64,000 nucleotides of DNA, from the IMG/VR virus record IMGVR_UViG_2529292698_000003; one strand, 5' to 3'. This document shows positions 951 to 61,597 of the stretch, piece after piece; the first letter of the stretch is position 1, and each line of letters begins with the position of its first letter. Both the position numbers and the translations under genes were made by a program. The notes beneath the pieces are model-generated. The model saw nothing but the letters and a program-made list of their open reading frames with translations. It did not search any database and was not told where the DNA came from. This DNA is from a virus.

Positions 951-1433
951 CTATTCAAAAAACTGCTTTAGATTTGGTCTAAAATAGTTAACACTCTTCA
1001 TCACCTTCATATCTCTTGTTCTATAGACAACATATCCAGTTTCTTCAGAACCCTCATAATGACATGATTCACCTTGCTCTTCACTTCTTACTTTAACGGT
1101 TTCTTGAGCTTCTTCTTCAGTTTTACAAATTTTAGACATATTGGATGCTTGTACTTCAGCATATCCTGGTAGGATTTTGTCTTTGAGTCCGAAAACTAGA
1201 GCACCATTTCCTAATCCAACATATGTAATATCTAGAATTGCATCTAGGATTCCTACAATATCATCTTGTTCAATTGCCTCTTTCATTTCATCGAGTTCCT
1301 CTTGAATGAAATCAACTACAAACTGTGCGTCTTTTTTGTCAATAGTGGGTTCAGTTCTGTTTTGCCAACCTTTACCCATTGTGTAGTTAAATTTTTCTAC
1401 TTCATCTACGAATGGTACTTTTTTATTTTTCAT
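951..1433 (-). CDS. MazG-like / PRA-PH family nucleoside triphosphate pyrophosphohydrolase
   Basis: IQEELDEM...ILDAILDITYV...SNMSK all-alpha NTP-PPase pattern. Confidence 0.7.
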   Translation of the reverse strand: MKNKKVPFVDEVEKFNYTMGKGWQNRTEPTIDKKDAQFVVDFIQEELDEMKEAIEQDDIVGILDAILDITYVGLGNGALVFGLKDKILPGYAEVQASNMSKICKTEEEAQETVKVRSEEQGESCHYEGSEETGYVVYRTRDMKVMKSVNYFRPNLKQFFE

Positions 1434-1435
1434 AT

Positions 1436-2005
1436 TTATTTAATTTTATTTTGAAATTTCATAAATGATCCTTCTTTATCATTAGTTAAACCACCTACAG
1501 TATGTAATTTACTATCTTCTTCTGACCAAGGCCCTGGTTTATCTACTTGTTCTAAAAAATCTAAAACATCCTGGTCTTTTAAATAATCTTGGATTGCATC
1601 TGCTTTTTCATCTTCCCAGGGGTATATAATCCAATCATCATTTGAAATTATGTTACCATAGAAAGTTGGGGTGAAATTAGAAGTATGTTTTCTATAATGT
1701 AAACTTGCAAATTTCAAATTTAATGAAAATGCAAATTCTGTTTGATATCTACTATAAATTTCATCAAACGTAACTCCACTATCACATATATCGTCTACAA
1801 TTAAAGTATCTTCATATATGCTACCCATTGAAATAGGAATGTTTAGTTTATGAGATAGTATAACTGCTGGGATTAATCCACCACGAGGCACCCCATATAT
1901 AGATTTAAATTCATATTCTGAATGTGAAATTTGTAGAGCTAATTTATCTACTAAGGATGAAATTTCCTCCCAATTAATTTTTATTTTAGATGTTGTGCCC
2001 TCCAT
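1436..2005 (-). CDS. Type I purine phosphoribosyltransferase (Gpt/Xpt-like)
   Basis: GVPRGGLIPA, PRPP loop LIVDDICDSGVT, WIIYPWE. Confidence 0.85.
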   Translation of the reverse strand: MEGTTSKIKINWEEISSLVDKLALQISHSEYEFKSIYGVPRGGLIPAVILSHKLNIPISMGSIYEDTLIVDDICDSGVTFDEIYSRYQTEFAFSLNLKFASLHYRKHTSNFTPTFYGNIISNDDWIIYPWEDEKADAIQDYLKDQDVLDFLEQVDKPGPWSEEDSKLHTVGGLTNDKEGSFMKFQNKIK

Positions 2006-2681
2006 TGTTTATTTTTAGTGAGTCAAAAAATTCTTTACGTGCATTATTTGTATCATCTCGGAATGCTCCTGATGCTTTAGTAGTAACCATTGCTGCACCT
2101 GCATGTTTTACACCTCTACAAGATACACAATTGTGAGTACCTACTACAGTAACAATTACACCTAAATTACCTTCAGTAATTTTATCTACTGCATTATGGA
2201 TTGCTGCTGTGAGTTGTTCTTGGATAGCACCTCTACGACCAAATAGTTCTACAATTCGATTCAGTTTAGATAAACCAATTACTTGACCATCAGTTCCAGC
2301 AATATAACCAATATGAACTACACCTCCAATTGTTTGGTGGTGGTGAGAACACATTGAGGTAAGTGGAATATTTCTTTCAATAATTACTCCATCATAACCA
2401 TCTGAAGGGAATGAGGTAATAGGTGACATTGCTGTGTATCGACCTTCCCATAGGTCATTTACATATGCTTTAGCTACACGACGAGGTGTTTCCATTGAGT
2501 TTGGATCGTTTCTCCAATCACATTTTAGAGCATCAAGAAACTTACCATATGCTTTTGCAGCTGCATCAATAATATTTAATTTTTCTTCTTCAGTGAAGGG
2601 GAATCCAGGTGCAACTCCATTTGCAAATCCTGTTTGTACTACTTCTAGATCTTCGTGTAGTTTTCTACGTTTGTTTTCCAT
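1986..2681 (-). CDS. folE: GTP cyclohydrolase I
   Basis: TPRRVAKAY, SMCSHHHQ, GLSKLNRIV, IQEQLT, HNCVSCRGV. Confidence 0.95.
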   Translation of the reverse strand: MENKRRKLHEDLEVVQTGFANGVAPGFPFTEEEKLNIIDAAAKAYGKFLDALKCDWRNDPNSMETPRRVAKAYVNDLWEGRYTAMSPITSFPSDGYDGVIIERNIPLTSMCSHHHQTIGGVVHIGYIAGTDGQVIGLSKLNRIVELFGRRGAIQEQLTAAIHNAVDKITEGNLGVIVTVVGTHNCVSCRGVKHAGAAMVTTKASGAFRDDTNNARKEFFDSLKINNGGHNI

Positions 2682-3104
2682 TTATTTTATTTTATATTGT
2701 TTTTTATATTTTCCAACAAATGACTTACCAACACCCACTTCTAATATTTCTGCTTTGATAGGAATACCTGGTAGTTTATTAGCGGATAAAATATAATCAA
2801 TGTTTTCATTTTGCCAAACCTTTATTTTAGTTTTAGCATTTGAGCGATTTGATGTTTTAAATACCATTATTACTGGTTGGTTATTATATGCTTTACCTTT
2901 ATCAGCTTTAATTTTGGGTGATCTAAACCCTTTAGGGGATGTATGTTCTACTTTCCAAGGACCAGTTTGAGATTTGTTTATATCATAATACCATTTTGAT
3001 GTTCCTCCTAATTCTGGTTTAGAGGGGAATTCATGATGTTCTTCAACCCATTTTTGTTTAACTTTTGTTGGTGTTTCTTTAGGTCTTCCTCTATTTTCTC
3101 CCAT
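2682..3104 (-). CDS. Basic hypothetical protein with N-terminal RGRP motif
   Basis: Start moved from 3152 to ATG 3104 (MGENRGRPKE) because a promoter occupies 3124-3152. Confidence 0.6.
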   Translation of the reverse strand: MGENRGRPKETPTKVKQKWVEEHHEFPSKPELGGTSKWYYDINKSQTGPWKVEHTSPKGFRSPKIKADKGKAYNNQPVIMVFKTSNRSNAKTKIKVWQNENIDYILSANKLPGIPIKAEILEVGVGKSFVGKYKKQYKIK

Positions 3105-3123
3105 AACTTTTATTTTATAACGA

Positions 3124-3152
3124 AATATAAGGAGACTCTTTCGAGTCTCCAA
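3124..3152 (-). promoter_or_regulatory. Class 1 promoter TTGGAG-N17-TATATT overlapping hairpin GGAGACTC-GAAA-GAGTCTCC
   Basis: Exact 17-nt spacer; 8-bp perfect inverted repeat 3131-3150. Confidence 0.7.
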
Positions 3153-3174
3153 ATATTTTTTAATAAAAATTTTC

Positions 3175-3423
3175 CTATGAGTTGTATAAATCTCGAATTT
3201 CTTCTTTTAATTTGACTCCGATTACTCGGTTTGTTTCTGCTCCTCCATTTACAAATACAATTGTAGGAACATTACGAATTCCATATTGTTGAGCCATATC
3301 GGGTTGTTGGTCAACATCAATGAATTGGATTGGAAGACCTTCTGCTTTTAAGGCTTCCATTTCAGGTTTAAACATTTTACATGGTCCACACCATGGTGCT
3401 GAGAAGTATAGGATTTGTTTCAT
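3175..3423 (-). CDS. trxA: Thioredoxin
   Basis: FSAPWCGPCK active site, IRNVPT cis-Pro loop. Confidence 0.9.
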   Translation of the reverse strand: MKQILYFSAPWCGPCKMFKPEMEALKAEGLPIQFIDVDQQPDMAQQYGIRNVPTIVFVNGGAETNRVIGVKLKEEIRDLYNS

Positions 3424-3536
3424 TTTGTTAGTTTTATTAAAATTAATTCTATTTGTTCAATTGCGTCGTAATCATTACTAGTTTGATTAATACACTCTAC
3501 AATCTCAATTGCTATTTTTCGGGTTGATTTTTTCAT
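3420..3536 (-). CDS. 38-aa hypothetical protein (absent from ORF track)
   Basis: MKKSTRKIAIEIVECINQTSNDYDAIEQIELILIKLTK; start overlaps queE stop (TAATG), stop overlaps thioredoxin start (ATGA). Confidence 0.55.
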   Translation of the reverse strand: MKKSTRKIAIEIVECINQTSNDYDAIEQIELILIKLTK

Positions 3537-4306
3537 TATACTCCCCTCTCTGTATTATATGCGATGATATGGTCTCGACCAGTCATGTTATAACCATGTT
3601 TGGCAACCATTTCGAATACCAATGGATACATTAATATTAATTCTTCCCTAGTATCACCAGCGGGCATAATATATGTTTTATCTTTTGGGATATTATGTTG
3701 AACCCGGAATTCTTCAATTTCGTCTAACCCATATTCCGTTCCATCCCACACTGGTTTATAATGATAATCAGTATGATACTCAAGTGTTTTTGAAATTGCT
3801 TCGTGATTCAATCTAAATTTATTGTGCTGTGCAATAAACTTTTTATCTACTTCCTTACCACCAGGAGTTTTAATTCCATATTCTGGTATTGAATTTGAGA
3901 ACTTAGGTGATAGTGAAATTAATCCAATTGGATAATCTGTTTCGATAAAATGACTACCCTCAGTTTCGATAGTAATTAATATGCCACGATCATTTGCAAA
4001 ATGCGTTAATTCATTTACTAGTTTAGGATGCATTGTTGGCGATCCACCCGTTAACATCATTTCTTTTATATGCGGATTTTCATCGTATATTTTAATAATG
4101 TCATTAAAACAAAATTTTCCTTTTTCTGGATGTATTGAAGTATACCACGAATCGCACCATCCACCTTCTCCAAACCAACAGCGATGTGTGCATCCGGTTG
4201 TTCTTATTGCTATGGTAGGTCTACCAAAACGTGAACCTTCTGATTGGACGCATCGATATAGTTCAACTATAGGTAATACTTTATTGTAATCTTCTATTCT
4301 TTTCAT
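3536..4306 (-). CDS. queE: 7-carboxy-7-deazaguanine synthase (radical SAM)
   Basis: VQSEG..GRPTIAIRTTGCTHRC...WCDS, LTGGSP, IETEG, LSPK; start set at 4306 (ATGA overlap with upstream gene). Confidence 0.9.
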   Translation of the reverse strand: MKRIEDYNKVLPIVELYRCVQSEGSRFGRPTIAIRTTGCTHRCWFGEGGWCDSWYTSIHPEKGKFCFNDIIKIYDENPHIKEMMLTGGSPTMHPKLVNELTHFANDRGILITIETEGSHFIETDYPIGLISLSPKFSNSIPEYGIKTPGGKEVDKKFIAQHNKFRLNHEAISKTLEYHTDYHYKPVWDGTEYGLDEIEEFRVQHNIPKDKTYIMPAGDTREELILMYPLVFEMVAKHGYNMTGRDHIIAYNTERGV

Positions 4307-4506
4307 TGTTGTTTTTTTTTTAAGTTTGAACATAATAAATATGCTTCTTCTAACCCAATTCCCTCAACTTCAGGTCTAAACCCTACTATATTGCTGCCTT
4401 CAACTCTTAAATTATCTTTAGAAGTTTCAAACCAACAATCAGGGTGATAATGACACCACCACCCATTTTCTAGTAGGTATTGATGTTTTTCAATTTTACT
4501 CTTCAT
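4303..4506 (-). CDS. Hypothetical protein inside the que operon
   Basis: 67-aa ORF overlapping queD stop and queE start. Confidence 0.55.
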   Translation of the reverse strand: MKSKIEKHQYLLENGWWCHYHPDCWFETSKDNLRVEGSNIVGFRPEVEGIGLEEAYLLCSNLKKKQQ

Positions 4507-4972
4507 AAATTGAGCTGTTATTATCGTTTTCGAAACATTCTACTTTGATGCATTTACATCTACCACCATCTGTTTTAGATAACACTTCATTGAATTTATC
4601 AAATACAAGTTTAGCATTACTTTCAGCACCCATTTTCTCTAGAAAATGTACTTTACAAATGCCTTCCATAGCCATTGATTCAAATAAATCACGATATGGA
4701 TCATCTGCTTGGATTAGAGTTGTATGGTCCCACATATGGTTCATCCAATCTTTTAGACCATTTCCTTTAGGTGGAGTCTTAAATCCACCATAATCAACAA
4801 TCCAATTCATATCATCTAATTGTTTGTTAATGTCAGGTTCGTTTGATGCAAACCATACTTTAAATTTGAGAGCATATCCATGGAGTAGCTCACAGTGTGA
4901 ATGAGATGCTTTCCATTGTCTAATTGCTACTGAATAATTTTCGAATAATTTTGTTGAAATATATCTTGCCAT
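4496..4972 (-). CDS. queD: 6-carboxy-5,6,7,8-tetrahydropterin synthase
   Basis: HSHCELLHGY, WDHTTL, GAES; between queC and queE. Confidence 0.85.
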   Translation of the reverse strand: MARYISTKLFENYSVAIRQWKASHSHCELLHGYALKFKVWFASNEPDINKQLDDMNWIVDYGGFKTPPKGNGLKDWMNHMWDHTTLIQADDPYRDLFESMAMEGICKVHFLEKMGAESNAKLVFDKFNEVLSKTDGGRCKCIKVECFENDNNSSIYEE

Positions 4973-4975
4973 ATT

Positions 4976-5878
4976 TTATGAATTATGTTCTTCTAAAATT
5001 TTAGTTACTTCAGTCACTACATGACCCCATTCTACTGGACCTGTTTCATCTGCATATCTTGTAGGATCAGGTCTTCCTAATTTAATAAATGCTTCTACTC
5101 GCTCAACTGAAGATGCTGATTTATAATCTGAATACCAATTATCTCCTGAAGATGAAATGATTTGGATTGGTTTATATGATGTGTTTGTACGTTTATAAAC
5201 TTCATTAAAATCTAATCCTAATTCTTCACATAACATTTCTCCATCTTGTAAAATAGTAAATTTATCACCATTTAAGTAAGGAGTATAAACAAATACTCTT
5301 TCAGAACCCCAGTTACCAGAACGGAATGCTTCAAAATCCAAATCACGGAATTCTTGTCTACAGTCAGGATAGATTGCATGGTCACCTGCGTGGATCCCCA
5401 TCGCAATTACCGTGTTTTCTTCCGTCTTATCTGCGATTGAGAGTGCTACTGCCTGGATGATGGAAGCAAAGATTTTGTTGCGGTTAGGAACAACTGTAGC
5501 TTTCATATTTTCTTCAGCATAATGTCCTTCAGGTACTTCATCTCCACCTTCTACTAAAGCTGAATCTAGTAAATCGACTAACCCGTTTAGTTGGATTTGA
5601 CGATACATAACTTCATTGTAATTTTTTCCTACTACTGTAATTGTACCTAATTGATCCTGTTCTGTTTTTTCTACATTACCATTTAAGTAATTTACCAATG
5701 ATTGGGCACGATCAAGTTCAACTCGGTGTTTTTGACCATAATCAAAACTTAAAGCGGTTACAGTATCGAATTCTTTTAAACATTTTAACAACACAGTAGT
5801 AGAATCCATACCACCTGAAAGTGATACTACTGCATGTTTTGCATTCATTTTACCTAATTGTTCTTCAGTAAATAACAT
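4976..5878 (-). CDS. queC: 7-cyano-7-deazaguanine (preQ0) synthase
   Basis: SLSGGMDST, YGQKH, VPNRN, GDHAIYPDCR. Confidence 0.92.
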   Translation of the reverse strand: MLFTEEQLGKMNAKHAVVSLSGGMDSTTVLLKCLKEFDTVTALSFDYGQKHRVELDRAQSLVNYLNGNVEKTEQDQLGTITVVGKNYNEVMYRQIQLNGLVDLLDSALVEGGDEVPEGHYAEENMKATVVPNRNKIFASIIQAVALSIADKTEENTVIAMGIHAGDHAIYPDCRQEFRDLDFEAFRSGNWGSERVFVYTPYLNGDKFTILQDGEMLCEELGLDFNEVYKRTNTSYKPIQIISSSGDNWYSDYKSASSVERVEAFIKLGRPDPTRYADETGPVEWGHVVTEVTKILEEHNS

Positions 5879-5924
5879 AATTTTATATAATTTAAATTTG
5901 CCAGGTATTATTAAGCGTATAGGC

Positions 5925-6422
5925 TTACGCTATATTTAATTTTTCTTCTAATCTTTCAAACTCAGGTTCAATAACATCATCCCAAAAATATTCATAATTA
6001 TCTTCATCTTCTTCTATTACAGTTTCTAATTCTAGGTATTGACCTGCGTCTGTAATTTTAATAACACCAATAGGATCATATGCTTCATCCCAATAACGTG
6101 CTGTGAAGGTAATATCAGGATCTATAGCAACCAACTGATGATGAATTTCTTTTAGCATATCTGAGGGAGGGTAATTAGCTGATTCTAGACCAAATTCATA
6201 TGATGTTTCGTCATCCCAAAATATTTCATATTGGGTAATCCACTTTGAACCTACTTTATCAATAAATAATTCAGCATCAGCCCCAAACACATCAACAATA
6301 TGAGGAATTTCTTCTTCATTTGGATATTTTCCATCATGACAACTTTCATATTTTTCTTTAAAATATGAGATTGCTTCTTTTGATCCTTGGATCTTAACGT
6401 CTGTTCTACAAGTATTTGCCAT
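5925..6422 (-). CDS. Acidic hypothetical protein, possibly DUF1281-C/YubB ferredoxin-like fold
   Basis: F.LESANYPP...L...PDITF...YWDE pattern resembles that fold; weak. Confidence 0.45.
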   Translation of the reverse strand: MANTCRTDVKIQGSKEAISYFKEKYESCHDGKYPNEEEIPHIVDVFGADAELFIDKVGSKWITQYEIFWDDETSYEFGLESANYPPSDMLKEIHHQLVAIDPDITFTARYWDEAYDPIGVIKITDAGQYLELETVIEEDEDNYEYFWDDVIEPEFERLEEKLNIA

Positions 6423-6613
6423 TATTCTTCAACCCAAAAATCAGTTCCACCATCTTTATCTCGAGTGAATTCCATTTCATCTCTTAACTCATCTTGCATT
6501 TCGTCATCTTCCCAAAATACATCTTCATTCTCTTTGTAGAGTTTGAATTGTTCATCTGTAAGTTCTACTGCATAAAAGCGGTAGTCGGTTTCGCATCTAA
6601 TTAGTTTAGCCAT
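6422..6613 (-). CDS. Small acidic hypothetical protein
   Basis: 63 aa, TAATG-coupled to next gene. Confidence 0.6.
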   Translation of the reverse strand: MAKLIRCETDYRFYAVELTDEQFKLYKENEDVFWEDDEMQDELRDEMEFTRDKDGGTDFWVEE

Positions 6614-6624
6614 AACTTTATTTA

Positions 6625-6879
6625 TTAAAATGGTAAATCATTATCATAATCTTGTCTATCACCTAATGTAGGATTTGGTTTTGGCTCCTCAAAATGAAAA
6701 TCTAAAAAATCTTTAGGGTATAAACGTACTGAGCCTGTGTATTTAGGGTTTGATATTTGTCGTTCTTGGGTTGGAATTTTTGCTTCATGAGCTGCTCGGG
6801 CTACTTCACTACCCAATTCTTTACCCGCAGGTTTTCCTAAATAATCATAAAGAGATAAATATTCAATTTTATTTTCCAT
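6625..6879 (-). CDS. Hypothetical protein
   Basis: Start moved to ATG 6879 (MENKIEYLSLYDYLG) downstream of promoter 6893-6921. Confidence 0.6.
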   Translation of the reverse strand: MENKIEYLSLYDYLGKPAGKELGSEVARAAHEAKIPTQERQISNPKYTGSVRLYPKDFLDFHFEEPKPNPTLGDRQDYDNDLPF

Positions 6880-6892
6880 AATTTTTATTTTT

Positions 6893-6921
6893 AATATATT
6901 AAATAAAGGTGAGGATTCCAA
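6893..6921 (-). promoter_or_regulatory. Class 1 promoter TTGGAA-N17-TATATT heading the queC-queD-queE-trx unit
   Basis: Exact motif and spacer in intergenic gap. Confidence 0.7.
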
Positions 6922-6922
6922 A

Positions 6923-7717
6923 CTAGAGTCCATTTATTTTTCTAAATATTCTTAAATTATCTACAAGTAAATTCCAATTAACTTCACTCCCTATAATATT
7001 AAAATGGTCATTCATATTTGCTTTAGGTTTAAATTCTAACCCAAATCCAGAATATTTTGTATCTTCTAAAGATGCCATTACTGGGTTTGATGTATCTATT
7101 GATTCTAGAAAAGTATAACCTTTATACCATCCAAATTCTTGTGGAACAGAACATCCTAAAAGATGAACTCTATCAGAATTTAAAATAATTCCCATTTTAT
7201 GTAAAGTAGCTATTACTTGCATTCTTCCAAGTGCTTTACCTAAATCTTTATTTGGATGTGGGCAAACCTCATTATAGTAACTAGCACCGTATGAAAACGC
7301 AATCTTTTTATAACCTAAATCTTTATAAGTTTGATAACAAGTAGATGCTTCATGAAGTGTAGTCGCTTGAATTACTGCTACTTTTTCTACTCCTTCTGGT
7401 AATTTAATAGAAGCCCATTTACGAGCATTAACTAATGAAGCATCTTTATCTTCCCATACATCTGGGATAATGAATTCATTAGGTTTTAGTTGGTTTATCC
7501 AGTAAAATAATCGGTCTTCATTATATGCTTTTCCTAGTTCATGTAATGAATTATCCATAATAATGTACCTACCTTGTTTTTTACAATTTTGAAAGAATTT
7601 TCTATAGGTTTTATTTTTATCCATTAAATGAGGAAGACAATAGTCATAGTCGTTAAATTCTTGGAGTTCCTCTAATAGATATAATGGAGATTCATGACTT
7701 ACTTTTACTTTTCTCAT
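6923..7717 (-). CDS. TGT-fold protein, probable DpdA-like guanine transglycosylase
   Basis: Ordered motifs IIMDNS, IIPDV, VAVIQ, RVHLLG, SIDTS match the TGT/DpdA barrel; adjacent to the preQ0 genes. Confidence 0.65.
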   Translation of the reverse strand: MRKVKVSHESPLYLLEELQEFNDYDYCLPHLMDKNKTYRKFFQNCKKQGRYIIMDNSLHELGKAYNEDRLFYWINQLKPNEFIIPDVWEDKDASLVNARKWASIKLPEGVEKVAVIQATTLHEASTCYQTYKDLGYKKIAFSYGASYYNEVCPHPNKDLGKALGRMQVIATLHKMGIILNSDRVHLLGCSVPQEFGWYKGYTFLESIDTSNPVMASLEDTKYSGFGLEFKPKANMNDHFNIIGSEVNWNLLVDNLRIFRKINGL

Positions 7718-21711: not shown

Positions 21712-22173
21712 TTAAAGATTTATTATCTTATAAATTTTAGTGTTTAGTTGTTTTAACTCATTATGTTGAGTTAATAAAATACAATTTCTATAATGCTGCC
21801 AATCAATTGGGAATTTAGTGTCTACAATCCCATTATTGAGGCTTTTAATAAGAGTATTTAATGCATTTATTGTATAAAGAGTATTAGTTTCTTTTTTTCT
21901 ATGAACTAATATTGTATTTTCGGGGATTGAAGAAATGTTGCCCTGATCAACATTATATGTGATAACATATTCTTCATTGCTTTTAACTTGAAGAACAAAT
22001 ATCTTTTTATATAAAACATCATAGCTATTAGACACCTCATAAATAAGTGTATCTAGGTCGTCTAATTGAGTAAATGTGCAGAATAATCTATTATTCATTG
22101 AACTAATGTTATCAAACGTATCAAAATCATACTGGTGATACATATGTTCAAGAGGTGTTAAAGTTTGGTTCAT
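21712..22173 (-). CDS. Hypothetical protein
   Basis: 153-aa ORF between polymerase and SSB. Confidence 0.6.
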   Translation of the reverse strand: MNQTLTPLEHMYHQYDFDTFDNISSMNNRLFCTFTQLDDLDTLIYEVSNSYDVLYKKIFVLQVKSNEEYVITYNVDQGNISSIPENTILVHRKKETNTLYTINALNTLIKSLNNGIVDTKFPIDWQHYRNCILLTQHNELKQLNTKIYKIINL

Positions 22174-22182
22174 AACTTGTTT

Positions 22183-23430
22183 TTAAAAATTGTAATTTTT
22201 TCCTTTTTTAATTTTAATATTTAATTTGTGGTTTTTAAATATGTCTAATATTTGTTTAATAGTATCTTTCTCCTCCTTATCTACATCTAATAAAAAAGAA
22301 TCATACACATATAATACTAATTTAGTATTTTTATTTCTTAATAATTTTAAGATTTTATATAATATAAGAACATTATTTGAAGTTTCCAAGTTTTGAAGTA
22401 AATAATTTAAAAGTTTTTGAGGATTCATATTCTCAAGTCTATCCTTATCAAATCTATGTTTTGATATAGGACACTCAATATATCCTTTACTTTTAAATTC
22501 TTCCCATAATTTATTAGTATATTCTTTAACCTTACTAAAAAATTCTAAATGTTCGTATTGTTTAAATACTCCACCATATAATTGTTTAAATGTTAATTCT
22601 TTAGCCTTTTTGTAATCCACACCATACATTTCAGCAAATGATTGATGAATATCTCCTTCAGGAAATTCAAATCCTATTACTTTGGCTAGTAATATGGGGT
22701 GGTAAGCACTGATATCTATATCTAAGAAAAAATCATTATGTGGTATAAATGCTTCTCTTTCTCCATTGTTTTTATTTAAAGCTGCAAAGTTAATGCCACC
22801 GAATTTATTTGAGGGTCTCATTGTTGTTGTATCTAAATTATATTGGGTATAGACATAACCTTGAGCTTCAAAGTTAAAATATCTGTTATAAACTTCTTGG
22901 TTGAGTTTTAAACCATTTTTTTCTATTAAATTAAACACCAAGTCTGCTTTATCTCTAAAACTTGATGGGTTTTGGAATTCAAGGTTAGAGAATAACTCCT
23001 CACAATATTCATAATGTTTAACAAGAGGTATTATACAATTTATGTTAGTTTGGTTTGGGTATTTCCTATAGTAAAATTCATGAGTTTGTGTATATTCATG
23101 TATATACGGAGGAGGGGGGAGGGGTGTGGTATGGCAAGATTTATGAAAGAAATAATGTAGAAATTCTTTTTTATCTCTAACATATATTGTCGCAATATCT
23201 GCTAGTACCTGCTGTATACTGCTATATTCTAAATGAAATGTGTCGTTGTGTTGAAGGCATATCATATAGCCTTTATTCGCGTTTACTAGCGGTCTAATGT
23301 AAACTAATGATACGGGGTTGAGTGTTGGATGTATGTTTGGGGAGAATGGTATTACCTCAACAAATGCTTCTTTAAAGCCTTGTCTTCTAAATATATCAAG
23401 TTGAGATTCAGTTTCTATAATCCAAAACAT
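22183..23430 (-). CDS. Small divergent family A DNA polymerase
   Basis: TTMRPSN, motif A DIDISAYHP, motif B KELTFKQLYG, NYLLQ, motif C YVYDSFLLD. Confidence 0.75.
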   Translation of the reverse strand: MFWIIETESQLDIFRRQGFKEAFVEVIPFSPNIHPTLNPVSLVYIRPLVNANKGYMICLQHNDTFHLEYSSIQQVLADIATIYVRDKKEFLHYFFHKSCHTTPLPPPPYIHEYTQTHEFYYRKYPNQTNINCIIPLVKHYEYCEELFSNLEFQNPSSFRDKADLVFNLIEKNGLKLNQEVYNRYFNFEAQGYVYTQYNLDTTTMRPSNKFGGINFAALNKNNGEREAFIPHNDFFLDIDISAYHPILLAKVIGFEFPEGDIHQSFAEMYGVDYKKAKELTFKQLYGGVFKQYEHLEFFSKVKEYTNKLWEEFKSKGYIECPISKHRFDKDRLENMNPQKLLNYLLQNLETSNNVLILYKILKLLRNKNTKLVLYVYDSFLLDVDKEEKDTIKQILDIFKNHKLNIKIKKGKNYNF

Positions 23431-23437
23431 ATCTCAT

Positions 23438-23466
23438 AATATACGATATATTTTTTATGATTCCAA
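23438..23466 (-). promoter_or_regulatory. Class 1 promoter TTGGAA-N17-TATATT
   Basis: -10 ends 7 nt before the polymerase ATG. Confidence 0.65.
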
Positions 23467-24105
23467 ATAATATTTTAAAAAGTTATCTTTAAAATATTTT
23501 ACAAAACCATACCATTTATTTCTTTGTTCTATTAAGGTAATATTGTTTTTGTTTGCATTATATGTTTGAGTTTTACCACCTTTTATTTGCCATATTACTT
23601 GAAGTGAGGTGTATAAATCCCAAGCAATTGTTTTGTCTTTATTTTGTAGTTTTGTAAATTGTTCTTTGTTTATTTCTATGTAGAGATTTTCATTGGTTTT
23701 TTTACAAAAATATCTTGGAAATGATCCTAAATCCTTATCTTTTTGGGTTGGTAGAGTTTGGAGGGGGGTTGGTAGAGAACGACCTAATCCAGAATCATTG
23801 TTTGGGATATAATCTGAAATATTTTGTATTGGGTTAGAGTTGGGAAGAGGAGGGAAACCAGAATTAACTCTAGTAATTGGATTTGAAGGTAAGGTTTGGT
23901 TTGTTAATTGGGGATTACCTGAGATATTAGGGTTTATTGGGATTAGGAGGATATTTGGGGTATTCGAGGAGGGACTACCTGTGAATTTATTACCGTTAGA
24001 AATCTCATAAAAATATCCTATATAAAGTTCTCCAGTTGTAGAAAGAACATATTCCTCCCCATTAGTGTAAAGGTTTAATTTTATTTGAGATTTAGGATAA
24101 TACAT
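23455..24105 (-). CDS. Hypothetical protein, last gene of baseplate block
   Basis: 216-aa ORF, Pro/Asn-rich middle. Confidence 0.6.
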   Translation of the reverse strand: MYYPKSQIKLNLYTNGEEYVLSTTGELYIGYFYEISNGNKFTGSPSSNTPNILLIPINPNISGNPQLTNQTLPSNPITRVNSGFPPLPNSNPIQNISDYIPNNDSGLGRSLPTPLQTLPTQKDKDLGSFPRYFCKKTNENLYIEINKEQFTKLQNKDKTIAWDLYTSLQVIWQIKGGKTQTYNANKNNITLIEQRNKWYGFVKYFKDNFLKYYLES

Positions 24106-61057: not shown

Positions 61058-61067
61058 TTATAAATAT
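61058..61067 (-). promoter_or_regulatory. Class 2 late-type motif ATATTTATAA
   Basis: Exact motif. Confidence 0.65.
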
Positions 61068-61597
61068 TAAGGAAAAAGTGTTTGTTTAACTTTTTGTATT
61101 CTTTCCTCGGTAGTGCCCGATATTTTAATGAGATTAGGGATTTTTGAATTATATTTGATTAATAACTTTTGAATCTCATTATCAATCTTTATTCTATAAT
61201 TAGCATCGGTTTCACGAACTCCATTATCCTCTATTTCAACTCCTTCAGGTGAAACATAAAAAATATAATCATATTCACGTAGTAAATGTGAAGCTGCTTC
61301 ATTCAAAGTATCACATATAAAATATGATATTGAATGAGAGGATATAGTAAATGCCATCACATCAATTACTGTACGATCTGTAATTACGTTTTCTAAATAT
61401 AATTCACTTGAACGTTCAGCTAAAAATACAAATTGACCTTTTAATGTTGAGTCAGTATTTAAGGGAATCCCTAAATCACGTAAATATTTTGAACGTTCAG
61501 TTCGAAATTCATAACCTGAAAATTCAGGTAATTCTTTTAAAGCATTAACTAAGGTAGTTTTACCTACTGAAATTGTACCGCAAAAACCTATTTTCAT
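61067..61597 (-). CDS. P-loop nucleotide kinase (AAA_28/NadR-like, possible dNMP kinase)
   Basis: IGFCGTISVGKTTL, ITDRTVID, DNGVR. Confidence 0.75.
   Translation of the reverse strand: MKIGFCGTISVGKTTLVNALKELPEFSGYEFRTERSKYLRDLGIPLNTDSTLKGQFVFLAERSSELYLENVITDRTVIDVMAFTISSHSISYFICDTLNEAASHLLREYDYIFYVSPEGVEIEDNGVRETDANYRIKIDNEIQKLLIKYNSKIPNLIKISGTTEERIQKVKQTLFP

Follow-up and report, generated by a model that had tools for sequence, protein, structure and literature searches.

A Gpt-type purine phosphoribosyltransferase accompanies the 7-deazaguanine gene clusters of phages and may recycle guanine

Introduction

The stretch of DNA analysed here, 64,000 nucleotides long and called the window below, comes from an uncultured T4-like phage from aquatic Bacteroidota. 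It carries a cluster of preQ0-pathway genes together with a purine phosphoribosyltransferase (PRTase) and an all-alpha NTP pyrophosphohydrolase, and the question is what these two enzymes do there. A first, sequence-only reading proposed that they form a nucleotide-level route to a modified base, alongside or instead of the exchange of guanine in DNA by DpdA. The DpdA3 subfamily is found in three phage groups with all guanine replaced; per 10^6 nucleotides, phiST has 302,000 dDG and immuto 345,000 fdPreQ1, and replacement is complete in CP220 too. Complete replacement has been reported for dDG, fdPreQ1 and dADG, dPreQ0 not being among them (PMC10516641). The published description of the immuto-type clusters is silent on the PRTase and mentions a dUTPase/MazG-like gene of phiST in passing (PMC10516641), and we found no published description of a PRTase paired with a 7-deazaguanine cluster in the literature.

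Results

Gene calls and profile searches placed the cluster at 951-7717, tightly packed and all on the minus strand (Table 1). It holds a DpdA-family gene, QueC, QueD, QueE, a thioredoxin, FolE, the PRTase and the pyrophosphohydrolase, and the genes named in the sequence-only reading (queC, queD, queE, folE, a TGT-fold gene, PRTase and pyrophosphatase) are all where it had put them. Its description of the last two as co-oriented and abutting folE is also correct, the FolE and PRTase genes overlapping by 20 nt and 2 nt separating the PRTase from the pyrophosphohydrolase gene. The gene order is identical in another IMG/VR contig, L015, and in dozens more, which implies that the arrangement is more than chance.

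Table 1. Features of the cluster, with positions in the 64-kb window.
Feature	Position	Strand	Evidence
All-alpha NTP pyrophosphohydrolase (PRA-PH/MazG-like), 160 aa	951..1433	-	PF01503 E 2.5e-8; phrog_671 E 5.6e-25
Gpt/XGPRT-type purine PRTase	1436..2005	-	PF00156 E 1.5e-7
FolE, GTP cyclohydrolase I	1986..2681	-	PF01227 E 3.5e-41
Basic protein, pI 10, between thioredoxin and FolE	2682..3152	-	No family match
Thioredoxin, 82 aa	3175..3423	-	PF00085 E 8.8e-19
QueE, 7-carboxy-7-deazaguanine synthase, radical SAM	3536..4333	-	TIGR03365 E 3.4e-13 (weak radical-SAM/QueE profile match); identity supported by 67% to annotated immuto QueE
ORF between QueD and QueE, 67 aa	4303..4506	-	90% identity to same-position ORF of L015; no family match
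QueD, 6-carboxytetrahydropterin synthase	4496..4972	-	PF01242 E 2.1e-10; 38% identity to immuto QueD
QueC, 7-cyano-7-deazaguanine synthase, 300 aa	4976..5878	-	PF06508 E 4.7e-35; 79% identity to immuto QueC
Acidic protein, 165 aa	5925..6422	-	No HMM match; DUF1281_C-like lead only
Putative acidic ORF, 63 aa	6422..6613	-	No match in family searches
Hypothetical protein, 102 aa	6625..6933	-	Often adjoins DpdA or QueC; no Pfam, PHROG or NCBIfam match
DpdA3-subfamily guanine transglycosylase homologue, 264 aa	6923..7717	-	36% identity (E 4e-60) to immuto DpdA

In the 64-kb window, tblastn with the immuto proteins as queries gave no match to QueF or DpdN, and HMM searches gave neither QueF nor a second QueD. 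The lack of queF seen in the first reading was thus confirmed for this window, where the Pfam scan took in the ORFs outside about 24-52 kb. As that reading also stated, QueC is without a glutamine-amidotransferase domain in the Pfam domain search. Both RNR subunits are encoded in the window, and a kinase homologue lies 54 kb from the cluster.

Several of the smaller genes recur elsewhere. Homologues of the 102-aa protein were present in 10 of 80 PRTase loci and also upstream of immuto QueC. The 165-aa protein has 43% identity to an ORF in that same upstream region, and in the ESM Atlas its neighbours are hypothetical proteins of viruses, a part of them with PF18406. The basic protein is kept between thioredoxin and FolE in four loci; its listed start is a TTG overlapped by a hairpin (3131-3150), and the true start is probably further in. 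A thioredoxin homologue was found in 35 of the 80 PRTase loci, and the FolE proteins of the clade have a mean column identity of 81%.

The TGT-fold gene had no Pfam match. It matches phrog_19058 (E 2.5e-41), and its best PDB sequence match, a weak one (E 0.25), is the bacterial DNA-guanine transglycosylase 7UI4. Judged by its sequence it is a DpdA3 homologue: D55, R165, H185, G188, D208 and N254 are invariant in 30 homologues, and both conserved aspartates are present. The protein is a minimal barrel without zinc cysteines, and the net charge in the family is mostly acidic (median pI 6.0). QueF occurred in none of the 80 loci picked by similarity to this DpdA3, while the PRTase was present in 31 of 35 loci selected in this way.

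The PRTase matched only 26 records among GenBank phages: immuto, the phiST group, CP220-like Campylobacter phages, Brevundimonas phages, PA5oct, a cyanophage, Stenotrophomonas and Pseudomonas phages and two unannotated records, nearly all of them deazaguanine phages. It adjoins FolE or is fused to it in Flavobacterium, Brevundimonas, Stenotrophomonas and cyanophage genomes; in StAshley it is adjacent to FolE with QueC/D/E and a DpdA-like gene 8 kb off, and in Bhz54 there is a PRTase-FolE fusion. FolE lies within 400 nt of the PRTase in 45 of 80 IMG/VR loci, and DpdA never abuts it. Co-occurrence of the PRTase with the pathway was clear, with preQ0-pathway genes in 66 of the 80 viral (IMG/VR) PRTase loci as compared to 7 of 80 from cellular genomes, and, when the PRTases were grouped at 50% identity, in 16 of 24 clusters. 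The seven cellular loci are either virus-like or fusions. The pairing of the PRTase with phage 7-deazaguanine clusters is therefore real and conserved, and it extends over unrelated lineages.

It is conceivable that there is no specific link, and that the PRTase, thioredoxin and pyrophosphohydrolase are ordinary auxiliary genes of nucleotide metabolism that share a block with the que genes by descent. The thioredoxin in the block and the nearby RNR would agree with this, as would five well-covered, distant PRTase loci with no que genes, a complete 328-kb phage with the PRTase and no DpdA3, and the restriction of the pyrophosphohydrolase link to one clade. However, the PRTase pairing recurs in unrelated lineages with differing gene orders and a FolE fusion, and the excess in viral loci and the near restriction to deazaguanine phages in GenBank also speak against common descent alone. 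We give this explanation little chance.

The nearest NCBIfam model of the PRTase is xanthine PRTase, scoring below its cut-off. By sequence, the PRTase is closest in the PDB to archaeal purine PRTases, and the best fold matches in Foldseek (E 1e-10 to 1e-7) are P. horikoshii 1VDM, the S. solfataricus PRTases (4TRB, 5BQO) and E. coli XGPRT (1A95/1A97/1NUL). Gpt/XGPRT and the phage protein have in common the RGG loop, the DD..D[ST]G.T motif for PRPP and the W-I-x-x-P-W-[ED] motif for base binding. In the alignment, D71, D72 and D75 correspond to D88, D89 and D92 of E. coli Gpt, and W125..E131 to W134..D140. R41-G42-G43, D71, D72, D75, W125, P129, W130 and E131 show little or no variation, in clusters with and without QueC or QueF; D75, whose E. 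coli equivalent contacts the purine N7, is invariant in every alignment whichever the end product (CDG, preQ0 or preQ1). These residues argue that XGPRT chemistry is retained. Gpt and XGPRT are housekeeping salvage genes, whereas the phage gene is carried by viruses and is linked to FolE or fused with it.

About 25 residues of Gpt (59-83), the flexible catalytic loop with the R69 equivalent, are missing from the phage PRTase, and 59 of 80 viral homologues lack the loop. Since this loop matters for HGPRT-type catalysis, the PRTase may be slow, need a partner or do something else. Instead of a transferase it could be a FolE subunit that binds PRPP, GMP or ppGpp and has a regulatory or scaffolding role, and the FolE fusion, as well as the ppGpp-bound PRTase-like protein 5VOG among the fold neighbours, would fit. 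The phage proteins also have an added, conserved C-terminal tail of about 45 aa (residues 144-189), low-confidence in the model (pLDDT 82) and seemingly disordered, which suggests a docking motif. But outside the loop every residue for catalysis and PRPP binding is invariant, as would be unusual in a module that only binds, and we find such a role very improbable.

Among the accessory genes of the clade, that of the pyrophosphohydrolase is conserved best, with 60% mean identity and its acidic residues (E45, E46, E49, D64 and D68) invariant. Its model has a pLDDT of 93.6, and the nearest solved fold is DR2231 of Deinococcus radiodurans (E 1.6e-3, TM 0.60-0.69), dUTP-specific according to structure entry titles and literature. 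The helical bundle and the EExxE...DxxD site are common to the phage enzyme, DR2231, MazG and HisE, but identity to DR2231 is about 15% and the phage enzyme has an extra C-terminal beta-hairpin region (model residues 124-138). No sequence match to characterised G-specific enzymes was detected. T4 gp56 dCTPase/dUTPase and MazZ of Z-genome phages are functional parallels, reshaping of the dNTP pool by phage-encoded enzymes of this type being common. Homologues in other phages lie beside thymidylate genes. The proposed pairing of PRTase and MazG-like enzyme with que clusters holds in the clade of the source phage and fails beyond it. Of the 80 PRTase loci, 25 have the gene downstream of the PRTase at a distance of at most 400 nt; the family is present in just 3 of 24 PRTase clusters and absent from three genomes, 94-100% complete, that carry DpdA3 and the PRTase (G006, G007 and G010). 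The association is limited to this clade.

Discussion

The gene set is of a known type for swapping DNA guanine with a 7-deazaguanine. The immuto cluster, from a phage of the same host phylum, has FolE, QueD, QueE, QueC and the DpdA3 homologue in common with ours, and also holds the PRTase (48% identical) and the pyrophosphohydrolase (61%). Immuto QueC must make preQ0, and its high similarity to the QueC found here counts in favour of the same product. FolE, QueD, QueE and QueC would convert GTP to preQ0, and DpdA3 would exchange guanine of the phage DNA for it. We infer that the final base is probably dPreQ0, because QueF, DpdN and DpdL of the immuto-type system, and DpdM, are absent from the window, and, by comparison with the three DpdA3 phages that have been characterised, that all or nearly all of the guanine is probably exchanged. 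The base could also be dADG, or be further modified via genes outside the window.

The nucleotide-level route would instead have a TubE/ToyH-like PRTase ribosylate preQ0 (or CDG/ADG) with PRPP; kinases and the phage RNR would give a dNTP for the polymerase, the pyrophosphohydrolase would destroy dGTP, and DpdA3 would patch residual G. Fully substituted phages usually do destroy the canonical dNTP. TubE (tubercidin) and ToyH (toyocamycin) of Streptomyces are purine-type PRTases encoded with FolE, QueD and QueE homologues, and TubE, proven to be CDG-specific, joins PRPP to 7-carboxy-7-deazaguanine (PMC6112128). The PRTase is present in each of the three completely substituted phage groups, and the RNR genes and the conserved pyrophosphohydrolase just downstream of the PRTase would also suit such a route. 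So would the ADG nucleoside reported in the cytoplasm of CP220-infected cells and the lack of demonstrable DpdA3 activity, on DNA or in E. coli (PMC10516641).

On the other side, the TubE and ToyH clusters make free nucleoside antibiotics with GMP-reductase, Nudix and decarboxylase tailoring genes and have no DpdA, and they are likened to the phage PRTase by description, not by sequence. Among the scanned ORFs of the window there was no GMP-reductase, PurA/B-like, Nudix or HAD tailoring enzyme of the toy/tub type. D75 is kept whatever the end product, and the substituent of a 7-substituted 7-deazapurine, which has no N7, would face its carboxylate. The link of the PRTase is to FolE, whose step opens the pathway and consumes GTP, and not to QueC or DpdA, and DpdA3 is present in 19 of the 23 well-covered PRTase loci with preQ0-pathway genes. 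The pyrophosphohydrolase is absent from the complete genomes with DpdA3 and the PRTase, and is closest in fold to a dUTP-specific enzyme. Thus the companionship seen in the first reading stands, with the pyrophosphohydrolase alongside in the clade, but not the pair as a substitute for DpdA: DpdA3 has its aspartates, and the PRTase its N7-contacting Asp and base-binding motif. We regard the nucleotide-level route as unlikely.

A third possibility is that the exchange takes place on mononucleotides. The pyrophosphohydrolase would turn dGTP into dGMP, DpdA3 would swap its guanine for preQ0, a phage dNMP kinase and NDK would give dPreQ0TP, and the PRTase would recycle guanine via GMP to GTP for FolE. 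The scheme resembles in its logic those of T4 hmC and the Z-genome phages, finds a use for every conserved gene of the module and, as D75 would suggest, lets the PRTase act on guanine. The small, acidic DpdA3 barrel, a thymidylate-kinase-like gene between DpdN and QueF in immuto-type clusters and the ADG nucleoside would also fit. But this is pure inference, pI is weak evidence, the kinase homologue is far from the cluster, and the complete genomes mentioned above have DpdA3 and the PRTase without the pyrophosphohydrolase. To our knowledge no TGT-family enzyme acts on mononucleotides, and we find the scheme quite improbable.

To DpdA3-type replacement in DNA, with guanine recycled to GTP for FolE, we give an even chance. 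The PRTase more likely recycles expelled guanine than feeds a modified base into the nucleotide pool, and the guanine would presumably return to GTP. The conserved Trp/Ile/Glu motif reads a face that guanine has in common with CDG and preQ0, which leaves D75 as the sole argument for a base with N7; adjacency or fusion to FolE indicates a shared pathway and not which step, and for no phage protein of the family is an enzyme activity known. The hosts already own purine salvage, and a phage copy therefore needs an argument of quantity. With about 50,000 G per 160-kb genome (31% GC), millions of guanines would be released, and equal GTP used, per burst. The pyrophosphohydrolase, syntenic in the clade and not obligatory, would be a pool sanitiser, a dUTPase-like one being the leading guess. 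The loop-less PRTase, translationally coupled to FolE, would join PRPP to guanine expelled by DpdA3 or coming from degraded host DNA, and in doing so it would also clear guanine, which is poorly soluble and competes with preQ0 for the transglycosylase. Host kinases would raise the GMP to GTP, which would enter FolE again and close the guanine cycle.

Organization of the gene cluster

The gene block in which the sequence-only reading had seen que, folE and TGT-fold genes, with a co-oriented phosphoribosyltransferase (PRTase) and NTP pyrophosphatase beside folE, is tightly packed and lies on the minus strand throughout, and both the gene set and the packing were confirmed. The DpdA gene is followed by three small ORFs without an assigned family, QueC, QueD, a 67-aa ORF, QueE, a thioredoxin and a basic protein, and the block ends with FolE, a Gpt-type purine PRTase of 189 aa and an all-alpha NTP pyrophosphohydrolase of 160 aa, in that order of transcription. 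The FolE and PRTase genes share 20 nt, and a gap of 2 nt separates the PRTase from the pyrophosphohydrolase. FolE, QueD, QueE and QueC are encoded by the phage itself, with Pfam and NCBIfam matches and 38-79% identity to the proteins of Flavobacterium phage immuto, whose fdPreQ1-type DpdA3 cluster is characterised. QueF, DpdN and a second QueD were not found anywhere within the 64-kb window, and the earlier statement that it holds no queF was borne out. Elsewhere in the window there are both RNR subunits, a DnaB-like helicase, gp32- and UvsX-like proteins and a T4-type portal and terminase, which identifies the element as a T4-like phage.

A GC-rich hairpin of 8 bp with a GAAA loop is located directly after the thioredoxin gene, over the listed TTG start of a 156-aa ORF, and a promoter-like TTGGCA-N16-TATATT is found on the upstream side of FolE. 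The sigma-70 promoter scan gave 43 sites in total as compared to 40 expected, which is background. Taken together, the hairpin and the promoter-like site are a hint of a separate transcription unit made up of FolE, the PRTase and the pyrophosphohydrolase.

Homologues with 43% identity to the 102-aa and 165-aa proteins encoded upstream of QueC are found at the same place in immuto, where 12 kb separate QueC from the remainder of the cluster, and a QueC-linked accessory role is possible for both. In immuto-type fdPreQ1 clusters an AAA_28 thymidylate-kinase-like gene is placed between DpdN and QueF. The window has a 27% identical homologue 54 kb from the cluster, beside a flavoprotein oxidoreductase.

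Coordinates of the features discussed; positions refer to the window unless a locus or record is named
Feature	Position	Strand	Remarks
Gene block	951-7717	minus	DpdA to pyrophosphohydrolase
DpdA-family protein, 264 aa	7717-6923	minus	first gene in transcription direction
102-aa and 165-aa proteins	5925-6933		upstream of QueC
Immuto counterparts of these two proteins	L010:409-1388		immuto locus
Hairpin	3131-3150		after thioredoxin
Promoter-like site	2817-2790		upstream side of FolE
C-terminal tail of PRTase	1436-1570		PRTase residues 144-189
Family A polymerase region	21712-24105		PF00476
AAA_28 homologue of the window	61067-61597		27% identical
AAA_28 gene, immuto-type cluster	L001:4751-5275		between DpdN and QueF
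AAA_28 gene, immuto-type cluster	L042:13569-14132		between DpdN and QueF
AAA_28 gene, immuto-type cluster	L045:8571-9098		between DpdN and QueF
AAA_28 gene, immuto-type cluster	L063:13687-14202		between DpdN and QueF
QueE to glycosyltransferase-like genes, cyanophage BUCT-ZZ01	L004:5153-12087		PRTase after QueE
Pyrophosphohydrolase homologue region, Microbacterium phage Juicer	L096, MZ622175.1 31968-36040		pyrimidine-gene neighbours

DpdA3 and the predicted DNA base

The TGT-fold gene product is 36% identical to the annotated DpdA of immuto (E 4e-60) and matches phrog_19058 (E 2.5e-41), a family that also detects DpdA3 in a CP220-like Campylobacter phage; it has no Pfam match. Because the Pfam TGT model misses even annotated phage DpdAs in a genome profile search, phrog_19058 and a purpose-built DpdA3 profile with a positive control were used, and this approach recovered DpdA3 in five of five control records. 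D55, D208 and an HLLG motif were invariant in an alignment of 30 homologues, and the two aspartates are probably the TGT catalytic ones. The isoelectric points of DpdA3 proteins, with a median of 6.0, are no indicator of DNA binding either way.

The window QueC is 79% identical to that of immuto, which must feed preQ0 to QueF, and QueF was found in 0 of 80 loci picked by similarity to the window DpdA3; the base predicted for the DNA of this phage is therefore dPreQ0, and genes outside the window may alter it. QueC enzymes can also stop at the amide. Besides a small number of tailoring enzymes, the published model of 7-deazaguanine DNA has FolE, QueD, QueE, QueC and DpdA. Members of the DpdA3 subfamily are found in phiST (dDG), immuto (fdPreQ1) and CP220 (dADG), where the replacement of G is essentially complete in all three, and all such DNA modifications were concluded to be post-replicative, although tests in E. 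coli failed to show DpdA3 activity (PMC10516641). The present cluster is a new member of this known type, and its predicted end state is complete dPreQ0, which is so far unreported and differs from the end states in PMC10516641.

Association of the PRTase with preQ0-pathway genes

A tblastn search with the window PRTase matched only 26 of 50,697 GenBank phage records: immuto, the phiST group, CP220-like Campylobacter phages, two Brevundimonas phages, one cyanophage, PA5oct, 42-kb phages of Stenotrophomonas, Pseudomonas and Variovorax, and two unannotated records. The arrangement varies among the genomes inspected. FolE adjoins the PRTase in Brevundimonas phage StAshley, beside RNR and a dNMP kinase, with QueC, QueD, QueE and a DpdA-like gene 8 kb away. 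A 297-aa fusion protein of Stenotrophomonas phage Bhz54 has the PRTase as its N-terminal domain and FolE behind it, and is encoded in an operon with the order queE-queC-queD-[PRT-FolE]-DpdA, and the known fusions of this kind measure about 300-345 aa. In the Synechococcus cyanophage BUCT-ZZ01 the PRTase is placed between QueE and QueD/FolE, and in phiST and the Campylobacter phage it is located elsewhere in the genome.

At least one of FolE, QueD, QueE and QueC was present in 66 of the best 80 IMG/VR PRTase loci, in which the PRTase was within 400 nt of FolE in 45 cases, of QueE in 11, of QueC in two and of DpdA in none. Clustering at 50% identity gave 24 PRTase clusters, 16 of them with preQ0-pathway genes. 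Among the best 80 PRTase loci of cellular genomes just seven had such genes, all of them phage-like MAG contigs, probable prophages or additional PRT-FolE fusions. In the converse selection, where 35 loci with enough downstream sequence were picked by DpdA3, the PRTase was found in 31, FolE in 30 and the pyrophosphohydrolase in 23. The link between the PRTase and the preQ0-pathway genes is real and crosses phage lineages, and mere synteny of nucleotide-metabolism genes is an improbable reading of it. No paper connecting a PRTase with phage deazaguanine DNA was found in our literature search; the FolE-linked Gpt-type PRTase, which lacks a catalytic loop, is a conserved component not described in the literature searched.

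Five loci with PRTase and que genes gave no DpdA3 match, and these were mostly fragments apart from one complete genome of 328 kb. That genome (L089/G004 in our comparison) is an IMG/VR jumbo phage of 328,096 bases with terminal repeats, and has a distant PRTase (34% identical) near a QueE-like gene. The profile found no DpdA3 in it and its QueC-like matches are weak only, hence it is not a clean DpdA-less case. The T4-like BUCT-ZZ01 has QueE, the PRTase, one gene without assigned function, QueD and FolE, and then two or three glycosyltransferase-like genes, with no QueC match and no DpdA detected with the profiles used. The product of its pathway may be other than modified DNA.

Structure and likely substrate of the PRTase

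By sequence and fold the PRTase groups with the small Gpt-type purine PRTases, the archaeal 1VDM, 4TRB and 5BQO and E. coli XGPRT. The AF2 model, whose core has a pLDDT >90, shows a type I PRTase fold, and Foldseek matched it to 1VDM, 5BQO and 1A97. In a direct alignment with E. coli Gpt, R41-G42-G43 corresponds to the RGG loop, the PRPP-binding motif D71-D72-x-x-D75-S-G-x-T79 to D88-D89-x-x-D92-T-G-G-T, with T79 in the phosphate loop, and W125-I126-x-x-P129-W130-E131 to W134-I135-x-x-P138-W139-D140. The aligned residues, D75, W125, P129, W130 and E131 among them, vary little or not at all in phage alignments of 20 and 30 sequences, which took in clusters with QueF, with QueC only and without QueC.

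D92 of E. coli XGPRT, the equivalent of D75, contacts N7 of the purine, and a stacking Trp and the C-terminal W-I-x-x-P-W-D/E motif complete the purine site. Bacterial adenine, uracil and orotate PRTases are not known to have an Asp at the D92 position; it does occur in an archaeal adenine PRTase, one of the fold neighbours, and D75 therefore points to an N7-bearing purine, not specifically to guanine. N7 is absent from 7-substituted 7-deazaguanine. The invariance of these residues whatever the end product of the cluster would fit a common substrate such as guanine, and CDG would fit likewise.

The flexible catalytic loop of E. coli Gpt (residues 59-83, including R69; about 25 residues) is absent from the PRTases of the window, immuto and L015, another of the loci compared, and from the Bhz54 fusion. 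In 59 of 80 viral homologues RGG and DD lie 26-31 residues apart, as compared to 43-49 when the loop is present. A loop-less PRTase could be a non-catalytic regulator of FolE, and we regard this as very improbable. Roughly half of the family, the window protein included, has a conserved C-terminal tail of 45 residues, which is present in the forms of about 180 aa and absent from those of about 140 aa. It has a consensus around WSEEDSKLHTIGGLTNDKEGSFMKFQNK and is modelled as disordered with low confidence. The tail could be a docking motif or a stand-in for the deleted flexible loop.

The reading that we prefer, and to which we give an even chance, is that DpdA3 swaps G for preQ0 on the DNA while the PRTase recycles guanine. 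The PRTase would make GMP from the guanine expelled by DpdA3 and from that of degraded host DNA, and host kinases would bring the GMP back to GTP for FolE. For each replaced G one GTP would be spent and one guanine freed. A genome of the size of immuto at 31% GC contains about 50,000 G, which implies that millions of guanine molecules would be released per burst, and this poorly soluble base would compete with preQ0 at the transglycosylase. Three observations agree with the recycling model: the PRTase is tightly coupled or fused to FolE, it keeps the N7-contacting Asp, and almost every well-covered locus has DpdA3.

The pyrophosphohydrolase and nucleotide-level routes

The pyrophosphohydrolase is a helical bundle (model pLDDT 93.6) with a PF01503 match, and the residues of its EExxE...DxxD metal-binding motif, E45, E46, E49, D64 and D68, do not vary among 31 sequences. 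No other accessory protein is as well conserved in the clade, which has DpdA3 and QueC and no QueF. The pyrophosphohydrolase is present in 41 of the 80 PRTase loci but in only three of the 24 PRTase clusters. Three genomes of 94-100% completeness have DpdA3, the PRTase and the pathway and no member of the family anywhere, in a search of the kind that recovered DpdA3 in all five control records. The combination of DpdA3 and PRTase can thus do without the enzyme, whose link to the pathway is bound to the clade. An integral, universal part for it was rejected on the same counts. Of the co-occurrence with que clusters proposed as a check for both enzymes, the half concerning the PRTase held (66 of 80 viral against 7 of 80 cellular loci, in several lineages) and the half concerning the pyrophosphohydrolase held within the clade only.

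The nearest solved structure is DR2231 (E 1.6e-3, TM 0.60-0.69), a MazG-like enzyme for which dUTP specificity is described and which was crystallised together with analogues of dUMP. GenBank has members of the family in 141 phage records, mostly of Microbacterium phages. In the one inspected, Juicer, the homologue is grouped with a thymidylate kinase, a glycosyltransferase and a thymidylate synthase, which suggests a pyrimidine-related role there, and in Tenacibaculum phage PTm1 it is found among genes without assigned function.

The sequence-only reading had proposed that the PRTase ribosylates a deazapurine and the pyrophosphohydrolase removes dGTP. TubE (PMC6112128) is a true precedent for such ribosylation, and the literature gives two hints in the same direction, an ADG nucleoside reported in infected cells and a DpdA3 that has not been reconstituted. 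The TubE/ToyH pathway resembles the present case in that the window PRTase is also encoded with CDG/preQ0 synthesis genes, and differs in that it has no DNA transglycosylase whereas the window has DpdA3. None of its types of tailoring enzyme (GMP-reductase-like, PurA/B-like, Nudix, HAD phosphatase) were found among the ORFs scanned. A dGTP specificity finds no support, and the indirect hints, a nearest fold that is dUTP-specific and homologues beside thymidylate synthase and kinase in a Microbacterium phage, point elsewhere. We consider this route unlikely; the computable evidence neither supports nor refutes a pre-replicative interpretation.

A somewhat broader scheme, with a small but real chance of being right, is that the complete replacement of G in DpdA3 phages takes place at the nucleotide level. 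The pyrophosphohydrolase would hydrolyse dGTP to dGMP, 7-deazaguanine would join the pool by DpdA3 exchange on the mononucleotide or by PRTase ribosylation, the PRTase would return the expelled guanine towards GTP for FolE, and the modified dNTP would be built into DNA by the polymerase. A narrower hybrid, in which the pyrophosphohydrolase supplies dGMP, DpdA3 exchanges the base there and the PRTase recycles the guanine, would mirror the logic of T4 hmC and the Z-genomes; it is speculative and improbable.

The family A polymerase signal of the window is limited to a 415-aa ORF (PF00476 weak, E 5.6e-6), flanked by ORFs of 153 and 216 aa that matched no family. A split or miniaturised polymerase is possible, and its form could matter if modified dNTPs are its substrates.

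Significance

DpdA3, the subfamily in which 100% of G is replaced, has never been reconstituted, and the PRTase is an obvious candidate for a missing component. It is about as common as FolE in DpdA3 clusters (31 as compared to 30 of 35), it occurs as a FolE fusion in other phages, and it is found in all three fully substituted phage groups. Whether it keeps the supply and use of guanine in balance for a very costly modification or opens a route through the nucleotide pool, either role would aid the laboratory reconstitution of complete G replacement and explain how the phages can afford it. The clade with DpdA3 and QueC and without QueF is abundant in aquatic viromes, and for these phages fully dPreQ0-substituted genomes are predicted.
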